Shown piece by piece: positions 1,525 to 60,075 of a DNA stretch of 64,000 nucleotides (position 1 is its first letter; every line of letters begins with the position of its first letter). Origin of the DNA: Octopus vulgaris (Eukaryota); contig OX597821.1 in assembly GCA_951406725.2 (NCBI GenBank), forward strand, positions 8,122,001 to 8,186,000, in the 5' to 3' direction. Made by a program: the position numbers and the translations under genes. The notes beneath the pieces are model-generated. The model was not told the origin of the DNA. It made no database searches and saw only the letters and a program-made list of their open reading frames with translations.

Positions 1525-1614
<90 letters not shown>

Positions 1615-1827
1615 TTGGTGAAATAGAAAGATGAATAATCTTGTTGCAGATTAATCAAAAGTTTAACCGATACCTTGGTAGCAAAAATCACAGCAGAAGA
1701 AAGCACGGTTGGAGGTACAACCATATGGTGTTGCAACCGTGCGTTGGTGCGGATAATTGAATTTTAATATTATTAGTGAATTGAAGAAATGGAGTTGAAC
1801 GAAGATTGAACAGAAATCCTTTTATTG

Positions 1828-1912
1828 CATTCTACACGTGTTTCGAAAGCCACAATTTACCAAATTCCGATTGAATAAGGAGACCATATTGTGTCTTTCT
1901 CTTCAGGAAGAA
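1828..1912 (-). ncRNA. Type I hammerhead ribozyme-like motif (long stem II)
   Basis: Minus strand reads ttc-CTGAAGA-gaaagacacaat...attgtggctttc-GAAAC-ACGT-GTA-gaa: canonical core, paired stem II, palindromic stem III ACACGTGT, 3-bp stem I. Confidence 0.7.
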
Positions 1913-2027
1913 ATAGGAATTCCGTTGGCAGAACAAAAACAGAACAGAGGCGCAGCAAAACAAATCGAACGAGGAGGCTCCTAAGAGCCCATGGCCAAAT
2001 ATAGTTTATGGTATTGAACGTGGATAA

Positions 2028-2125
2028 AGGGCCTGATGATTGGGGTTACATTTTAAGAAGGGTTCCAGGAAAACATGGAGTGGTTTAGGAACCGGAGGAT
2101 GTACCTGATGAAACACGTGTTGCCA
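2028..2125 (+). ncRNA. Type I hammerhead ribozyme-like motif (long stem II)
   Basis: ggc-CTGATGA(2033-2039)-ttggggttacat..ggttcc..ggaacc..atgtacctgat-GAAAC(2110-2114)-ACGT-GTT-gcc; same ACACGTGT stem III; AATAAA follows. Confidence 0.6.
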
Positions 2126-2284
2126 AGTAATAAAACATTAGGTATTTGAAATAAAAATTCTTTTTATATGGTGAGATGTAGGGGGCCACTATCTCTAAAT
2201 TAAAATATATATTTCTTCATTGAGAATAATTTGAACCTCTGTTATGCCGGAATTTTTATTCCCTAACAAATAAAATTTAAATGA

Positions 2285-2341
<57 letters not shown>

Positions 2342-4599: not shown

Positions 4600-6669
4600 T
4601 AAACAATCATGCACAATAAACCCGTACCACACGCAATAATTACCAACGACGGCCCCGTAAAGCACCACATCCTAACATGGGATATAGGGATACACCTTTC
4701 AATACCCATCCAAGAACCTGCACCATAAATGACAACGGTACTTCACAACAACAGGGAACAACAACATAACAGCTACCGTCTCAATCACCTTAATCATTTT
4801 TTAGACCCAATACGCAAACGCAGAGATACGAGATAGCACCAGACAGACAGGAGGAACCAAAAGTGATAAAAATCATCAATCTAATTCTCAAAGAACTAAC
4901 AGCAAAACAAATCAACATACTTTCCAAAGGGCTCAAGTTTACACCCGCGAACGTCCAAACTACAACGAAATGAAAGAAGACGTCGCAGAATTCTGTAGAA
5001 AATTATGACTCGCTGAGAAACTATACGACAAATACAACGGGGACGAATCGTTAGTCCGAAATAGAAGTAACTACACCCCTTCAAAAGGTAATAACAAAAT
5101 TCTTGACCATTTCTATGAATACATCACGAATTACCCATATCAACACATACACAAACAAAAGCACAAACCAATCTTCAGCAAAAACGAATGGGCAGAGCTA
5201 AACAAATTAAAAGATGATAAAACAATAACAATCAAAGAAGCTGATAAAGGGAGTGCAGTTGTCTTAATGGACACGGTATATTATATAACTCTAGTACTAT
5301 CCATATTAGAAGACACAACATATTATGAAAAGGCCCAACACTATAGTCAGCAGAAAATCATGAGAAATCTAAAACCCATGTTAAACCTATACAGAGAGGG
5401 GCTCACTGACAAGGAATATGATTATATGACCAAATTCAAAAGTAAATCCAGTCAATTCTACGGTATTCCTAAAATACACAAAAGTGAGATAATAAGTAAG
5501 GCGTACAGGAAAGTCACAGACATAATAGGTCACTACTCTTAATGACCTCAAATTGAGACCTATAATAGCAGGTCCCGCATGCGAAACCCACCGCCTCAGT
5601 AACTTTTTAGATACCCTCTTAAAACCATTCCTCAAACTTATCAAAAGCTACATAAGGGACGACTTAGATATGCTCAATCACCTCCCGAAAATAATAAACA
5701 AAAAACCTCTATTTCAATATCCCCCACAGTCTAGGAATAGAGGTAATTCAATTCTGGCTAGAGAATTACTCCAATGAACTCTCACATCGCATCAAAAAAG
5801 AATTCGTAATAGAAGGGCTAAAATTTATCTTGGAGAATAACTACTTCGTCTTCAAAGACAACTCTATCGGCAAATATAGTGTGCAAATATAGCCCTGGTG
5901 TCAACTGCAAAACCAGAAATGTAGTTTACCGAATAAACTGCATGGATAGTAATTGTAAAAATGGGAAAACTGCATATACTGGTGAAACGTCGAGAAGGTT
6001 GGTCGACCGTATAAATGGACATCGGAGGAAGTCCAGGGATCAAAGACAAACCTCGATACTCTACAAGCATGCCAAAGAACAACATGGTGGTGTGCTGAAC
6101 CGGATTAGCATAGAAATTCTGTCTAGATACCCGGACGACGCATCGCTACGACAGATACGAGAGTCAGTCTTCATAAACGAAACACAAGCGGTTTTAAATA
6201 GTAAATACTCTAATTAGGCACATTCCTTACAAAGACCCGTGGAGGCACAGACACATTCACACATACACACACACACGAATGGACACACACACACACACAC
6301 ACACGTGCAAAGACAAACAAGGATACAGACATGCCCTGATGTCCACACGGTCAAACACACATATGCGCATACGCATATGGATTCACATACACCCACACCA
6401 ATTTTTTTCCCATCAATCTTTCAATTATAAAGTGTGTTTGCATCAATATATATATACACACATATAAACATATAAACACACATATAAACCTCTACATTTG
6501 TACACACACGCACATGTATACATACATTCACTCGCACGCACGTACACACACCCGCACACACACACACACACACATTTACATATATATACAATACTATATT
6601 TGTTCCACGTCCTCGCGTTGTTGTGTTTTTTTGTTTTTTTTGTGTTTTCTTGTATGGATTAACTTTATA

Positions 6670-6670: not shown

Positions 6671-6719
<49 letters not shown>

Positions 6720-6722
<3 letters not shown>

Positions 6723-6950
6723 AAAAACCCACCTTTTATCAATTCAATAATGAAAAATTAAATTATGCCATTTAGAAAAATTACATATTATATACGTTTT
6801 ATTACAAATATATACGTTTTATTTATTATTTTGCACATTACTTAATCATTGTTATATGTTTTATCTTATATTTAATCTTTCTATATGTAATTTTTCTAAA
6901 TGGTATAATTTAATTTTTGTTTATTGAATTGATTAAAGGTGGTTTTATTC
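6720..6950. repeat. Foldback palindrome in (TA)n (partial copy of the 15681-15968 family)
   Basis: ccaccttttatcaattcaataatgaaaaattaaattatgccatttagaaaaattacatat has an imperfect inverted match at 6885-6948. Confidence 0.75.
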
Positions 6951-6952
6951 TA

Positions 6953-13177: not shown

Positions 13178-13360
13178 ATTTCTTTTATTGGCCGCAAGGG
13201 CCCAAAGCATAGAGGACAATATCGAAGGACTGGCTACCGCACACAAAAACAAAAATCTCACCAGCTTTTGTATTATTTGGTTTTGTTTTGTTTAGTGTGT
13301 GGTAACCCGTCCTTCGATACTGTCCTCTCTGTCTTGGGCCCTTGCGGCCAATAAAAGAAA
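13178..13360. mobile_element. Short inverted-repeat element (~50-bp arms)
   Basis: tttcttttattggccgcaagggcccaa..agaggacaatatcgaaggac pairs with gtccttcgatactgtcctct..ttgggcccttgcggccaataaaagaaa. Confidence 0.75.
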
Positions 13361-15401: not shown

Positions 15402-15520
15402 AGGGTGATTCAAAAGTCACCATACATAAGAAAAATTTATTTTTTAATGAGTAACAGTTAAATAAAAAGCTTTCTTATAAAAAGTAAATTGCTCTTATTT
15501 ATGGCGACTTTTGAATCACC
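15402..15520. mobile_element. Tc1/mariner-type MITE
   Basis: TIRs ggtgattcaaaagtcaccata / tatggcgacttttgaatcacc, flanked by TA. Confidence 0.75.
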
Positions 15521-15592: not shown

Positions 15593-15680
15593 TTGAGGGA
15601 ATATTGTCCAAACTTACAGGGAAAAATTCAATTTAGAAATACTAAATCAAATTTCACAAAATATAATAAATATATGAATG

Positions 15681-15962
15681 AGAAAAAATCACTTTTTATC
15701 AATTCAAAATGAAAAATTAAATTACACCATCTAGAAAATTACATATAATAGAAATATTAAATATACGATAAAAAAATATACCGATGATTAAGTAATGTGC
15801 AAAATAATAAATAAAACCAAATATATACGTTTTATTTATTATTTTGCACAATACTCTATCATCGGTATATTTTTTTTATCTTATATTTAATATTTCTATT
15901 ATATGTAATTTTCTAGATGGTGTAATTTAATTTTTCATTTTGAATTGATAAAAGGTGGGTTT

Positions 15963-15968
<6 letters not shown>
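15681..15968. repeat. Near-perfect foldback palindrome (~135-bp arms)
   Basis: Left arm ..tttttatcaattcaaaatgaaaaattaaattacaccatctagaaaattacatataatag..gtgcaaaataataaataaaac mirrored after a ~11-nt spacer. Confidence 0.9.
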
Positions 15969-16014: not shown

Positions 16015-16226
16015 ACGGGAAGCTTTATGAAAATAAACAAAAGACGAAGGCAGGTGGAATACAAACAAACAATTGTATTAGTATGGCGCTCAGGAATATA
16101 AATAAAACAAGTCTTTTACGTTTCGAGCCTATGCTCTTCAACAGAAAGATACCCAGAAAAGAAACACAGAAAGAAACAAGGAGAGAAAAAATGCGTGCAG
16201 AGGCTAGCGAATCAACATGGCGATCT
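16014..16226 (-). mobile_element. Solo PLE 3'-terminal copy with hammerhead-like motif (16112-16149)
   Basis: Reverse complement of 52230-52440; tcttt-CTGTTGAA-gagc-atag-gctc-GAAAC-GTA-aaaga. Confidence 0.85.
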
Positions 16227-20693: not shown

Positions 20694-21224
20694 TATATAT
20701 ATTACATATATATACTTATATATCATATTATACATATATATACACAATATATATATATATATATATATATATTTTATATATATAGGAAAAAAGCAACAAG
20801 AATGTGTTTCTCGGTACGATCGTTTCGTACGAGGACATCTTTAATAAGCTACAAAAAATGCAGTGAATACAGATGGCTCGTACTCGTCAGCCGAAAAAAT
20901 ATCTGGAAAATTCCCAAACATAAAAGGGGTAGATATAAAAGGAGGTTGTAGGATTAACTGCATTGAAGAAAGTTCGATTGATGGAGATCTGATGAAAGGT
21001 TTTAAATATAGAATTTATGCATGTCTACATATAGCTCATATTGGATATTTGATCAAGTTGTATGAAGACATTTTCAAGGATACAGTCATGCAAAATTTCT
21101 GAAAATCCGAGTAAGAGGCAAAGTGACGGCCACACCATGTAGAGGAAAGTCTGGAGTAAAAGACTGAGTAAACTATATATATATATAATATATATACAAT
21201 ATATACACAATATATATATATATT

Positions 21225-23581: not shown

Positions 23582-23625
<44 letters not shown>

Positions 23626-23799
23626 TAGACAAATGAATTAGAATTACGGATAATTCGAAAGATAACCGATACCTGGGTAGCAAACTCACAACAGAAAGGG
23701 CACGGTTGAAGTTCCGATTAATAGGGCATAAAATCCGTGCCTTAGTGCGGAAATTTGAAGTTTTATATATTAAGTATAGGAAAGAATCCTTTCCTTTAC

Positions 23800-23847
<48 letters not shown>

Positions 23848-30454: not shown

Positions 30455-31736
30455 TCAGGTTGAGTAAAAAGTAAGCAACGTTTTGAACCATGAAGAATTT
30501 GTACCGGATGTATGCAGAGTCTTTAAAAGAAATTTAGGATTTTTTTTTTGCGATTGTCTGATAACAGAGACATAGAATTGCCCAAATGCATCAGTAAATT
30601 AACATTGATTTTTTTTACTGTTGTTACAATCATCGGAAATGGAACTGTCAAAGCGCAATATTCGAATAATTTTGCTATTCAACTTCAAAAAAGAACGTAA
30701 AGCAGCTGAAACTGCTCGCGATATCAACGAAACGTTTGGTGGAGAAGTGACCAGTGAGTGGTCAGCTTGAAAATGGTTTAAGCGATTTCGTAGTGGAGAC
30801 TTTACCTTGAAGATCGTGAGCCTCGTGGACGCTCTTTTGTCATCGATGACGGTCAATTAAAGACCGTCATTGAGAAAGTTCTACGTAAAACCATTCGAGA
30901 ACTGACAAAAGAACTTCAAGTTAGCCAGAAAACTGCCTGCAACCATTTGCATGCGATCGGAAAATCAAAAAAGCTCGAGAAATGGGTACCACACGATTTT
31001 TAAGGAAAATCAGAACATGCGCAGATATGAAATTTGATCGTCGCTTCTCCGTAACCAGACCAAACCAGTTCTCGACCGTATTGTAACTTGCGATGAAAAG
31101 TGGATTCTGTACAATAATAATAAAAAAAAACGTTCTTCGCAATGGCTGGACCAAAACGAAGCACCGAAAACGTTCCCTAAATCCGAGCTATTCAAAAAGA
31201 AGGTTATGGTGACTCTTTGGAAGTGCACTGCTGGACTCATCCACTATAACTTCTTAATATCCGGAAAAACTATTACTGCAGAAAAATATTGCCATGAAAT
31301 TGCCAAATGAACGAAAAACTGCTACTCCTCCGTTCCAGACTGGTCAACAGAAGAGGGCCAATCATTCGTCATGACAATGCTCGACCACACGTTTCACAAA
31401 TGTCTATCCAGAGGTTGAGGGAATTTGGCTACAAAGTACTTCCCCATTCAGCTTATTCACCAGATCTTTCTCCTAACGACTATCACTTTTTCAAGCACCT
31501 TGATGTTTTCCTGCGAGAGGAGGAGTGCAAAAATCAAACCGATGCCGAAAGTGCGTTTAAAGAGTTCATCAGCTCCAGAACTCCAGATTTTTATGTTATC
31601 GAAATAAACTAACGCGTAACTCGTTGGCAAAAATGTGTTGATTGTAATGGTATTTACTTTGATGAATAAAATTTTCGCATTGTTGAAATATATTGTGATG
31701 AATTTCATGTTTGAAAATGTTGCTTACATAGCCTGA
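30455..31736 (+). mobile_element. Mariner DNA transposon, near full length, inserted in (TATC)n
   Basis: TA-tcaggttgagtaaaaagtaagcaacgtttt ... aaaatgttgcttac(ata)gcctga-TA; right TIR partly deleted. Confidence 0.92.
30639..31669 (+). pseudogene. Mariner (D,D34D-type) transposase pseudogene
   Basis: MELSKRNIR..KWFKRFRSGDF..KWVPHD..LDRIVTCDEKWILYNN..HDNARPH..YSPDLSPNDYHFF; stops and frameshifts. Confidence 0.93.
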
Positions 31737-31938
31737 TATCTATCTATATAAGCGCGATGGTTGGCGGGCAATTTGGACTGGCGCGATGGTTGGCGGGCAA
31801 TTTGGACTGGCCTTGTACATACGTGCATATATATATATATATATATATATGTAAGTAAATGAAAGAATGGAGTCGAACGAATTTGCTACCCAGGTTTCGG
31901 TTAAACGAATTTTCTATGCCGATAAACATAGGATAATT

Positions 31939-32012
<74 letters not shown>

Positions 32013-33334: not shown

Positions 33335-34011
33335 TTTACTATAATGCTTTTTGTTTTATTTCCATAATGCGTTTATATTCATTTATTCATTTATTGATGT
33401 TTACTTCTGTTGTTACCGTTGTTGATTATGATTTTCTTCTTTAATCGTAGTCTTAACCCAACATTTTGTTGTCTACTTCCGGTTGAAAAATGTGAATTTG
33501 GTTGCATGAACGTAGTCATAAGAAAGATACTGAAATGAGTGCTAAGATACATAATGCGGTCATTGCAAGTTTGATTAATCATGATAACAGCTGTATAAAG
33601 GGGAGGTAAGTATAGTTGAACAACGGTTATATTAATCAAGCAAGGGGGATATGTCAGATTAAAAAACAAATCTTTGAAATGAGATGATACATCAGAATAA
33701 TACCCTAACGTATCATCTCATTTCAAAGATTTTTTTCAAATCTTTTTTCTCATTTCAAAAATTGGCAAAGTTCTGTGGGAGAAAAAAAAAATTCTGACTT
33801 TTGATAGAAAGAGTGACAACCCCGGACGGATTCCGCGCTTATTAGGCTTCCTCAGAGAACTGTAGTAGCATACTGTGAAATTATGAATAGAAAGAATATT
33901 TTGTTGAGAGAAATATCATTACTATCAATGCTTTAAGAAGTTAAATGATTTAAGAAGTTCTATGATTTATGAGGTATTCAGGTATTCCCCGATACTTCAC
34001 TGAATGGATGA

Positions 34012-34156: not shown

Positions 34157-34597
<441 letters not shown>

Positions 34598-44761: not shown

Positions 44762-44817
44762 ATGTTCACTTAAAGAGAATAACAAGCTATGGCTTGTTAT
44801 TCTCTTTAAGTGAACAT
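44762..44817. repeat. Perfect 26-bp-arm hairpin inside a probable non-autonomous element (~44600-45095)
   Basis: atgttcacttaaagagaataacaagc-tatg-gcttgttattctctttaagtgaacat. Confidence 0.85.
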
Positions 44818-48850: not shown

Positions 48851-49093
48851 TATTAATGTTTGCTTTTATGTTATAATAAAATAGTACATATAATTGAACG
48901 ATTACTCAATACATTTGGTAGAGTATAAATTTATTATTCTTTAACAAGAATTGTATTGACAGTGACATCGAAATTTCGGCCGGCCTAAGCAATCATCAGA
49001 GTATATATATATATACATACACACACATATATACATATATACATATATAATGTATATTATATATATATATATATACTTTATTTAAAGCAGCAG

Positions 49094-49215
49094 AAAATTC
49101 AACAAAACCTGTTACTCTGAGATTCCCGTTGCCGTTCATCGGACAGTTTTTGCTAGTTAAAACTGTCCGATGAACGGCAACGGGAATCTCAGAGTAACAG
49201 ATTTTGTTGAATTTT
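49094..49215. ncRNA. Palindromic pair of type I hammerhead-like motifs (+ strand copy 49163-49200; - strand copy 49109-49146)
   Basis: ctgt-CCGATGA-a-cg-gcaa-cg-g-GAAT-ct-cag-a-GTA-acag inside ~55-bp inverted arms; homologue at 56684-56815 has intact GAAAC. Confidence 0.65.
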
Positions 49216-49432
49216 TGTTGAATTTGTTGAATTACTCTACCACTGGTATTTGAGTACTCTTTTTTCCACCTTGTTTCACATTTATGTGTTTACTCCGGTA
49301 TATATATATATATATATATATGTAAATTTTTTGTATACACATTATCGATTCCTAAATCATCCATAGATTTTTATGGTGACTATATATGTATTGACAGAGA
49401 ATTAAGTCCGGAATCAGCCGACTCGAGCAGTG

Positions 49433-49481
49433 CCTATTGATGAGGCTACGGAATTAGCCGAAACAGACCGATCAGTATAGG
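49433..49481 (+). ncRNA. Type I hammerhead ribozyme-like motif (C3U variant)
   Basis: ccta-TTGATGA-ggcta-cggaat-tagcc-GAAAC-aga-ccga-tca-GTA-tagg: stems I, II and III all pair. Confidence 0.75.
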
Positions 49482-49657
49482 GAATTCTCGACTGGTTTTT
49501 TCGGGCGATTACAGTCGTTGTCTGTACATATGTGTATACAATTATGTGCTTTTAGCTCTTATTTCTAGCAACGTAGGTGTTCTAGCACTCAATTCATATT
49601 TAATGACAATTATAGATTTCCTCTTTCGTAACACATTGCACACAGCTGTCTCTATAA

Positions 49658-49693
<36 letters not shown>

Positions 49694-49708
49694 GTATGTA
49701 TACGTATG

Positions 49709-49751
<43 letters not shown>

Positions 49752-49755
<4 letters not shown>

Positions 49756-51462
49756 TTCTACTCCCCTCTGCCCTCTAACCCCACACGTAGCTACCAACAG
49801 ACGGTATCCTCTACTGTCCGCGACCTCATCTCGTCCTCCCGTCTCCCCCGCACCGCATCCAACCTAATTGTGCGAACCCCACGTACCCCCACCATTTACT
49901 TCCTCCCCAAAATCCACAAATCCAACAACCCTGGCCGCCCCATCGTCTCCGCCTGTAACTGCCCCACGGAGCTCATCTCTAAATACCTCGACCGTGTCCT
50001 TGCCCCCCTAGTGGTATCTCTTCCCTCCCACATCCACGATACCAACCATGCTCTCCGGCTTTTCAACTCTTTCTCCTTTCCTCCCGGCTCCTCCAAAATC
50101 CTTTTTACTATGGACATCCAAAGCCTCTATACTCTTATCCCTCACCACGAAGGACTGCAGGCCCTTCGACACTTTCTTGGCCTCCGCTCTAACCCTGTAC
50201 CTGACACCTCCACACTCATTCGTCTGGCCGAACTTGTCCTTACTCTGAACTGCTTCTCGTTCGCGGGCGAGTTCTACCATCAGATCTCGGGAGTGGCCAT
50301 GGGAACGCGAATGGGCCCCAACTATGCGAACCTGTTCGTTGGCTATGTTGAGGCCCAAATATTCTCTAATTTCACTGGTCCCACTCCTGAACTATATGGT
50401 CGTTACATTGACAACATTATCGGTGCCACCTCACTCTCCCGTGAACATCTAGATTCCTTCCTCTCTTTCGTCCAATCTTTCCATCCAGCCCTCCACTTCA
50501 CTTCCACTATCTCCAACACCTCTGTCTCCTTCCTCGACATTTCGGTTAGCATTCTTCACTCCACTCTTACCACCTCCATTCACTACAAACACACAGACTC
50601 ACACTCATACCTCAACTTCTCTTCCTCCCACCCAGAACACACCAAGCTTTCCATCCCCTATTCCCAATTCCTCCGTCTACGTAAGCTCTGTAGTGACGAC
50701 CATGACTTTGAGACTCAGTCTCAACGTATGGCTCACCACTTCACCCTACGTGGATACCCCCTCACCACTATCCACACCGCCCTTGCCAGAGCACAGTCCG
50801 TGGACCGTGTATCTGCTCTCTCTCCCCGAACCCACCCTGTAGTCTCCCGCCTCCCTTTTCCCCTCACTTACCACCCCACGACCCTACGTCTCCAACGCAC
50901 CATTCTTCGAGCTTTCCGTCATCTCCAGTCCGACCCGTCCACTTCACACCTCTTCCCTAACCGACCCCTCCCCTCTTTCAAACGAGCCCACAACCTTCGA
51001 GACCTTTTGGTCCATAGCTCCTTCCCTGACCCTACCTCCCAACCCGGCTCGTTCCCCTGCTCCCGCCCACGTTGCCGCACTTGCCCTTACCTCTCCAACA
51101 CCACCCTCCTCACTAGCACCCACCATCGACCCTATCCCATCATCCACTCCTTCACCTGCACCTCCAGCAATATTATCTATTGCGTCTCTTGCTCTCTCTG
51201 CCATTCCTTGTACATCGGACAAACGGGACGCCGCTTGGCTGACCGGTTCGCGGAACACCTTCGTGACATCCACCTTGCGAACGACACACCGGTCTCACGC
51301 CATTTCCGCTCCACCGGTCACTCCTTGCAACACCTATCTGTGTTCGGTTTGTCCTTACACAGAGGCCATCCGGATTCCCGTTTGCGCCGTGAACAGGAAT
51401 TAATCTTCTCTCTTCGCTCTTATACGCCATTTGGTCTCAACTCTCCCTCCCTCCTCATCTAA
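49752..51462 (+). CDS. PLE reverse transcriptase + GIY-YIG endonuclease (N-terminally truncated; catalytic motif reads YIDN)
   Basis: YFLPKIHK..PGRPIVS, FTMDIQSLYT, GVAMGTRMGPNYANLF, RYIDNI, VSFLDI, Cys linker CSRPRCRTCPY, NIIYCVSCSLCHSLYIGQTGRRLADRFAEH, PFGLN; ORF-track start 49546 is read-through of a TA tract. Confidence 0.93.
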
Positions 51463-52302: not shown

Positions 52303-52340
52303 TCTTTCTGTTGAAGAGCGTAGGCTCGAAACGTTAAAGA
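52303..52340 (+). ncRNA. Minimal type I hammerhead-like motif at PLE 3' end (A6U core variant)
   Basis: tcttt-CTGTTGA-a-gagc-gtag-gctc-GAAAC-GTT-aaaga; 5-bp stem I, 4-bp stem II, loopless palindromic stem III ACGT. Confidence 0.7.
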
Positions 52341-53140: not shown

Positions 53141-54019
53141 GTCGTATCAAAAACTTCCCGGACTAGTTCTGTAGCGTGCCAAGAGATGGCAGCACACGAT
53201 TGCATGTACAGTGAGAGCTAGCAGTGACCTTCGTGCGTCAAGTGACATCGCTGTGTTTACTATGCAAGGAGTGAAATTTTTGTGACCACATGTATGCTGT
53301 GCTCTGCAATTTTTGTCACGGACAGGAAGTTGGAACAAGGAGCGAACATGTGTCAAACTTAGGAAGTATGCTACAGAAGCATTGAGCATGCTCGAGCAAG
53401 CTTACGGCGACGAGGCAATGGGTCGTACGCAATGATTCGTGTGGCATGGGCGCTTCAAAAGTGCAAGAACGTTACTGGAAGACGATAAGCGATCTGCAAG
53501 ACTTGCCTCAAGTCTTGCAGATGTGGAGAAAATTCAGCAGCTTGTGCACAAGGATGGTTGGAGTAAAGCAACGACGTTTTGAAGCGTTTGAGTGGGGAAA
53601 CTCGGCAAAAGCGAGCGGATCCGTGGGCTGCGAAGAATTGGATTTTTCACGACGACAATGCATCCTTTCACCAAACTCTCCTCACGTGTGAGTTTGTTGC
53701 CCCAAACAACATAGTATCCTTTCCACACTCACCCTATTCACAAGATTTATTACTTGCGGATTTCCATTTCGTCCACAAGATGAAAATGCAGCTCAAAGAT
53801 CGTCATTTTAACACCGATGTCGAAATTCAGGGCAAAACGCAGACGATCTTTGACTAGCTGGAGGAAAACGGCTTCCAGGCTGAATTCCAAAAGCGGCAGG
53901 AATGCTGGGACAAGTGTATTGCTGTGCAAGGTGACTATTTCGAAGGATATGATCCTAAAACTTTGGTAAATAAGTTTTTTTTTATTAAACATGGCTAGTC
54001 CGGAAAATTTTTGATACCA

Positions 54020-56566: not shown

Positions 56567-56855
<289 letters not shown>

Positions 56856-59989: not shown

Positions 59990-60075
59990 TATTCCTGAGC
60001 GCCATACTAATACAATTGTTTGTTTGTACTCCACCTGCCTTCGTCTTTTGTTTATTTTCATAAAGCTTCCCGTTA
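59990..60075 (+). mobile_element. Extreme 3' tip of the PLE terminus in (TA)n
   Basis: ttcctgagcgccatactaatacaattgttt...ttttcataaagcttcccgtta matches 52357-52440. Confidence 0.85.

Follow-up and report, generated by a model that had tools for sequence, protein, structure and literature searches.

Within a 64-kb window of the Octopus vulgaris genome (the whole stretch of 64,000 nucleotides analysed here), two type I hammerhead folds lie on opposite strands, point outward from one another and share some 680 bp bounded by (TA)n tracts, which raises the question of whether a single ribozyme-bearing element or two separate ones occupy the site. The window is AT-rich and microsatellite-dense, with 185 tandem-repeat rows and 52 TA tracts. 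The initial annotation of this locus offered an either/or: a non-coding ambisense ribozyme retro-module, or two termini of Penelope-like elements (PLEs) joined head to head. The second reading is favoured by contig depth, departing contigs, solo copies and a Hydra-type ribozyme core, and the 680-bp stretch is very probably a composite of two families whose ends are joined head to head inside (TA)n. The first fares poorly, the junction being near single-locus depth and the unit not rod-like (z -0.53).

Both folds are present on the strands and at the positions first described for them. The left one (1823-1915, minus strand) is predicted to comprise CUGAAGA (1906-1900) and GAAA (1844-1841) boxes, a helix II region of 55 nt closed by a G-C pair, a GUA site with a cut expected after 1833, and a proximal helix I of 3 bp. 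Its right counterpart (2030-2124, plus strand) would combine CUGAUGA (2033-2039) and GAAA (2110-2113) boxes with a 70-nt helix II region closed by U·U (2040/2109) and, in the present copy, disturbed by a G·G mismatch (2042/2107); a GUU site follows, with a predicted cut after 2121 and a helix I of 3 bp. Each thus displays the type I set of CUGANGA and GAAA boxes, NUH site and three helices with helix I open, and the palindromic helix III is CACGUG in both. The description of the two long stems II as unrelated also held, their alignment score being reached by 212 of 300 shuffles. A motif descriptor, composed after the motif was seen, finds three matches in the window (the pair and another at 20890 on the minus strand) against a mean of 0.005 and a maximum of 1 in 200 block-shuffled windows. 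The U·U closure of helix II hid the plus fold from a stricter initial scan. Searching with hammerhead models gave a divided outcome, as the custom descriptor recovers both folds while Rfam yields no hammerhead at the gathering score in the whole window and none at E<=10 in 1500-2400. In neither copy does the hammerhead have the lowest energy (constrained versus free, -21.5 vs -25.6 and -22.1 vs -31.5 kcal/mol) and the folding z-scores are 0.09 and -0.44; self-cleavage of both is a prediction only.

An AATAAA was reported just beyond each predicted cut, and is indeed found at 1826-1821 on the minus strand and at 2129-2134 on the plus strand. The first four letters of the minus AAUAAA pair within distal helix I in the predicted fold, and the plus copy probably supplies the distal strand of helix I, its 5' partner being absent here. 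Since the hexamer overlaps the likely distal strand, it need not act as a poly(A) signal; a structural role in helix I is suggested, and a polyadenylation role may also exist.

Apart from 26 nt that surround helix III and AATAAA, the left and right halves show no relation: their whole alignment is equalled or bettered by 59 of 300 shuffles and the score of their 3' tails is reached by 182 of 300, a shuffle-level similarity that rules out a simple inverted duplication. Copies were compared in assembled contigs from four of 24 runs, namely X1, X3 and X5 (DNA) and X8, whose being RNA is a guess only. Depths are contig depths summed per bin and do not equal copy number, and statements about individual pieces concern the 32 listed among 7430. 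The left hammerhead bin reaches 8.4e5, 2.3e5 and 6.3e5 in X1, X3 and X5, the right one 1.7e4, 2.2e3 and 1.9e4, and the junction bin (2003-2025) 108, 13.5 and 53. Left therefore exceeds right by 51, 106 and 33 times, right exceeds junction by 154, 164 and 353 times, and the junction falls 7,800-17,400 times below the left ribozyme. Contigs listed as low in depth lie at 28-60, 3-14 and 25-75 in the same runs, and the junction stands at about single-locus level, part of which overlap at the edges may contribute. Depth in X8 (76-820 for the left half, 0-20 for the right half, 0 at the junction) reflects poor cover and was excluded as evidence.

The contigs themselves part at the junction. Fifteen of the 24 listed DNA pieces start at 2027-2050, and all five of these that are long enough to pass 1999 leave into other sequence, two of them for 243 and 256 nt, with none on the left half. 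No piece among the 32 bridges the junction, and no left/right joint at any other breakpoint is listed in the four runs, a comparison of low sensitivity; the joint likely exists at this locus only. At 2107, 2138 and 2148 another letter accounts for 98-100% of right-family depth, leaving a remainder of 0-113 that is of the same order as the junction (at 2107, 112, 38 and 113 for the locus's own letter in X1, X3 and X5). Left-family pieces lacking the right half occur at two other sites in the window. From the unequal depth, the departing contigs and the solo left pieces it follows that the halves are two families.

The left element (1612-1999, minus strand), delimited by depth, contig breaks and relatives, is a non-coding stretch of about 390 bp whose longest ATG frame encodes 37 aa; its 3' end abuts a (TA)n tract in the tandem-repeat listing (about 1472-1614), its 5' edge lies near 1999, and it is a copy of a very abundant, likely PLE-derived family. 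With the family-majority letter at 1827 (70-90% of depth), left helix I extends to 9 bp with one bulge and uses part of the AAUAAA. Two X8 contigs break at 1999, the first continuing directly into a (CT)n(TA)n microsatellite and the second joined there to an inverted left-family copy cut at 1664, and other loose ends near 1970-1980 run into differing sequence; the family may consist of non-autonomous elements of a set 390-bp length, or represent the trailing part of a longer parent. A relative of its 3' part sits alone between (TA)n tracts at 23624-23803 (minus strand; 74% over 128 nt, the match spanning 23649-23772), and at 31857-31940 two pieces in head-to-head orientation are flanked by (TA)n and (CA)n, resembling left 1627-1685 (E 1e-4) and 1779-1803 (E 0.07). 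The family seemingly has two 3' ends, near 1612-1627 and near 1772. A hairpin at 1700-1745, the outer stem of which is kept in the 23.6-kb relative, is a candidate enzyme-binding site. The 5' end (1999-1960, minus strand) bears a small hairpin, along with a 9-mer that resembles a B box but has no clear A box to go with it; a tRNA-derived 5' head was rejected, this 9-mer being the sole trace and ARAGORN returning 0 genes.

Depth, contigs and a Hydra-clade-like hammerhead identify the right element (2004-2289, plus strand) as the 3' end of a second, less abundant family. Its 5' edge falls between 2004 and 2027, its 3' end abuts another (TA)n tract in the tandem-repeat listing (about 2285-2341), and depth climbs toward the 3' end as expected of 5'-truncated copies. 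The present copy carries G at 2107, where C makes up 98-99% of right-family depth; G breaks a helix II pair that C restores. A loose end before 2030 in X5 (10 contigs, agreement 0.85) supplies nine bases upstream of the right core that are absent here and that, as judged by eye, would pair with the right AAUAA, which suggests a lost distal helix I strand. Both copies at the locus hold a helix-breaking letter contrary to the family majority (1827 left, 2107 right), and the locus is likely decaying. Among the listed variants, which are unphased in the family contigs, pairing is restored by the family-majority letter at 2107 and at 1827 and kept at 2096-2098, and six others break pairs in the present copy's own predicted fold.

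Sharing of the CACGUG palindrome had led to the proposal that the two strands' RNAs could form a heterodimeric hammerhead. Co-folding gives -9.2 kcal/mol for the left-right heterodimer, -11.7 and -12.3 kcal/mol for the homodimers, and -2.6 and -1.0 kcal/mol with the third hammerhead of the window, so that by this model the heterodimer is thermodynamically allowed. The duplex arises because of the shared palindrome and implies no function, and it requires no genomic adjacency of the halves. Within each family, the likely role of the hammerhead is the processing of tandem or read-through transcripts, probably as a dimer formed through the palindromic helix III and with help from protein.

Both families are likely PLE-derived. 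Neither half contains a reverse transcriptase (RT)/GIY-YIG frame, and the PLE-type frames at 5009-6217 and 49444-51462 have no terminus in common with either; as no reading frame is tied to the halves, the type of ribozyme, the insertion target and the architecture carry the assignment. With cuts predicted 221 and 168 nt from (TA)n, the two halves show the PLE trait of a hammerhead near a 3' end that abuts a microsatellite target, and the left family also shows head-to-head inverted 5'-truncated copies (one X8 contig; 31857-31940). Features that the right half shares with Hydra-clade PLEs are a CUGANGA-U...U-GAA core, insertion at (TA)n, and a ribozyme no more than about 200 nt from the 3' end. 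By-eye counts in one survey give 14 Hydra-clade rows out of 26 in its hammerhead table with a U following CUGANGA and another preceding GAA, and a (TA)n preference in 26 of 27 Hydra families (PMC8557442); the core ends resemble its Hydra-1_cRog row. Unlike the Hydra-clade elements described there, the right half has a much longer helix II and no ORF was seen, and the core type and (TA)n insertion are suggestive of the Hydra clade, not diagnostic. At the protein level the clade is marked by DKT and the absence of CCHH, and no frame is linked to the right half. Neither half matches by eye the 3' ends of Hydra-1_Obim, Naiad_Obim and Naiad_Ovul as given in the supplement, a mismatch that removes the idea of a Naiad 'half-core', and the helix III context strings have 0 occurrences in the supplement text, where line breaks could hide matches (PMC8557442).

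The arrangement as a whole recalls the inverted structures of PLEs. Dual minimal hammerheads lie on opposite strands 100-700 bp apart and most motifs are related to truncated PLEs (PMC4209133), while Penelope-13_HM has an inverted 5' copy bearing its own hammerhead (PMC8557442). The present locus resembles such structures (PMC4209133, PMC3846280, PMC8557442) in its opposite-strand type I hammerheads at that spacing, head-to-head 5'-truncated arms, short helix I, palindromic helix III and microsatellite target. It differs in that the arms come from unrelated families, the known inverted arm in these accounts being a copy of the same element, and in helix II regions of 55-70 nt, where those PLEs have short-looped stems of 7-8 bp. 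Pairs of opposite-strand hammerheads are thus known already from PLEs, and those of PMC4209133 may include mixed-family ones; what is unusual here is the inverted partner from another family together with the long helices II. Searches of mainly open-access literature brought up neither a cross-family inverted arm nor a description of these two families.

How the two ends came to be joined is a further matter, and the readings are graded by rough estimates. An origin in a single event with two RNAs has about an even chance of being correct. By this account, one Penelope-like insertion would have copied two different RNAs into a TA microsatellite: a PLE reverse transcriptase/GIY-YIG endonuclease targeting (TA)n would mobilise both 3' ends, a nick on each strand would prime cDNA synthesis starting at the 3' end of an RNA, and joining of the two cDNAs at their ends would produce the usual PLE inverted structure with a partner from the other family. 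A single event is favoured because the geometry equals that of same-family inverted inserts, the 1999 breakpoint included, and because the joined families share helix III (along with AAUAAAA), from which the window's other hammerheads differ. It is supported by the inverted 1999-1664 joint of X8, which has the same geometry with a same-family partner, and by same-family head-to-head modules without a microsatellite between their arms (49076-49298 and 31857-31940). According to PMC11167929, a purified Anolis PLE protein, for which a dimer is predicted, is able to nick each strand at AT-rich sites and to extend it, and the PLE hammerhead cuts only with protein and is dispensable for insertion in vitro. 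The different helix II closures (G-C vs U·U) may point to different parent enzymes.

Successive insertions of the same two families form the nearest competitor because of the ATATA at the junction (1999-2003), and are judged a reasonable but less probable course, falling short of an even chance. The left element would have arrived first, and the right one later, in opposite orientation, into (TA)n at the left 5' edge, with four or five bases of the tract left behind. The ATATA fits such a target remnant and so speaks against a single event, TATA or ATAT being found in 4.5% of 7-nt windows of the unit as background. The X8 contig with (CT)n(TA)n directly after 1999 indicates that left 5' ends can offer a (TA)n target, the 52 TA tracts in 64 kb include several beside PLE-like ends, and the differing helix II closure would suit separate arrivals. 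Weighing on the other side, the solo inserts at 23624-23803, 56678-56814 and 20785-21172 keep long TA on both sides, a two-unit remnant lies in the tail of expectation (roughly estimated at 5-10%), and the geometry is identical to that of same-family inverted inserts. Whether by one event or two, the junction is likely a by-product of insertion and not a viroid-like two-strand element.

There is a small chance that the families are not PLE-derived and belong instead to other hammerhead repeats, either retrozymes in monomeric form or SINE-like elements that depend on a different retrotransposon for their mobility. The lack of a PLE frame in either half, the recurrence of left 5' ends near 1999 and the B-box-like 9-mer would agree with this. 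Animal non-LTR retrozymes (PMC7229834; bioRxiv 10.64898/2026.07.22.740005) are non-coding units of a few hundred bp with a type I hammerhead; the left family is, like them, abundant and likely PLE-related, and it is present in runs guessed to be RNA. Unlike those retrozymes, the present locus has no tandem array, one ribozyme per half and ends fixed to a microsatellite; no tandem unit is found at the locus, and no circular (go-back) joint is listed in the four runs, a weak negative. What speaks for PLEs is the Hydra-type core, the targeting of (TA)n, the inverted partners with truncated 5' ends and the alternative 3' ends, all of them traits of that group; no tRNA was found, and no A box near the 5' end.

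Slighter still is the prospect of a non-coding ambisense ribozyme module moving as one, or of a viroid-like circle cut on both polarities. Viroid-like ambisense circular RNAs carry ribozyme motifs on both polarities, and such an entity would accord with cores that are well formed on each strand and share helix III, as well as with a non-zero junction depth in three DNA runs under three organism codes. The locus differs from them in being genomic and two-family, with a near single-locus junction, right-half contigs that depart from the unit, no rod-like fold (z from 20 shuffles) and helix-breaking letters in both copies. With a single ribozyme on each strand and no tandem repeat, the locus would release no unit-length RNA. 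Pattern scans found no pair of helix III sites 250-280 nt apart in viral contigs, no shared helix III with AATAAAA in metagenome and viral contigs, and no left-family motifs in metagenome and prokaryote genome contigs. Least credible is an accidental junction that the host has since retained as an RNA locus for bidirectional self-cleavage or heterodimer formation. The modelled heterodimer would permit this and several samples may share the junction; against it stand the helix-breaking departures at 2107 and 1827 and the probable loss of the right distal helix I strand, and no link to a host gene was seen.

As it stands, the locus is mostly ordinary PLE debris. PMC3846280 proposes that the inverted arm of PLEs forms by self-priming, with an antisense strand as template; a single event that yields an arm from another family would require two templates. 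It is conceivable, though improbable, that PLE enzymes insert two RNA templates per event and that the palindromic helix III is the code pairing them. If so, families sharing CACGUG could co-insert head to head and families with other palindromes could not, the hammerhead would gain a job beyond cutting, and the fold-back (self-priming) model of PLE arms, unable to make the arm of another family, would be replaced. A more practical point concerns detection. The window holds three hammerhead families with helix II regions of 55-70 nt, one of them very abundant, and the core-motif search set out in PMC8557442 allows a spacer of 7-17 nt; since Rfam misses such helices and that search would miss them, hammerhead counts in genomes of this kind are likely too low.

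Several other elements in the window merit description. The third predicted long-helix-II type I hammerhead (20785-21172, minus strand, core at 20890) is the best formed of the window, with a 57-nt helix II, a CGAUCG helix III, an 8-bp helix I and G-C closure; it lies 30 nt from (TA)n and is unrelated to both halves. At 49076-49298, a same-family head-to-head pair is set between TA tracts, its arms beginning just upstream of a hammerhead-like motif and its 3' ends lying about 60 nt apart, with a solo copy at 56684-56814. In each arm the hammerhead-like motif has a U4C variant of the core together with an identical A15.1 change, similar to the Hydra-2_aMil row in the hammerhead table (PMC8557442), and the pair shows what an ordinary PLE product looks like, serving as an in-window control for the composite. 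A long open RT and GIY-YIG frame (49444-51462, 672 aa stop to stop, in a region reaching 52439) has, by protein search, RT/GIY-YIG relatives in marine animals and no link to either half. The downstream end of this region is at (TA)n, with a hammerhead-like motif at 52308 that has an A6U core variant, and recurs at 16015-16226, 34341-34594 and 59992-60073. The frame at 5009-6217 is a broken, internally deleted PLE frame that joins an RT start to a GIY-YIG end. Self-inverted modules of 240-290 bp beside TA tracts, at 6719-6951 and 15680-15967, belong to one AT-rich family, and further self-inverted pieces occur at 13179-13360, 15404-15520, 33656-33743 and 44762-44817. Broken frames at 31038-31612 and 53567-53857 resemble a mariner-type transposase.
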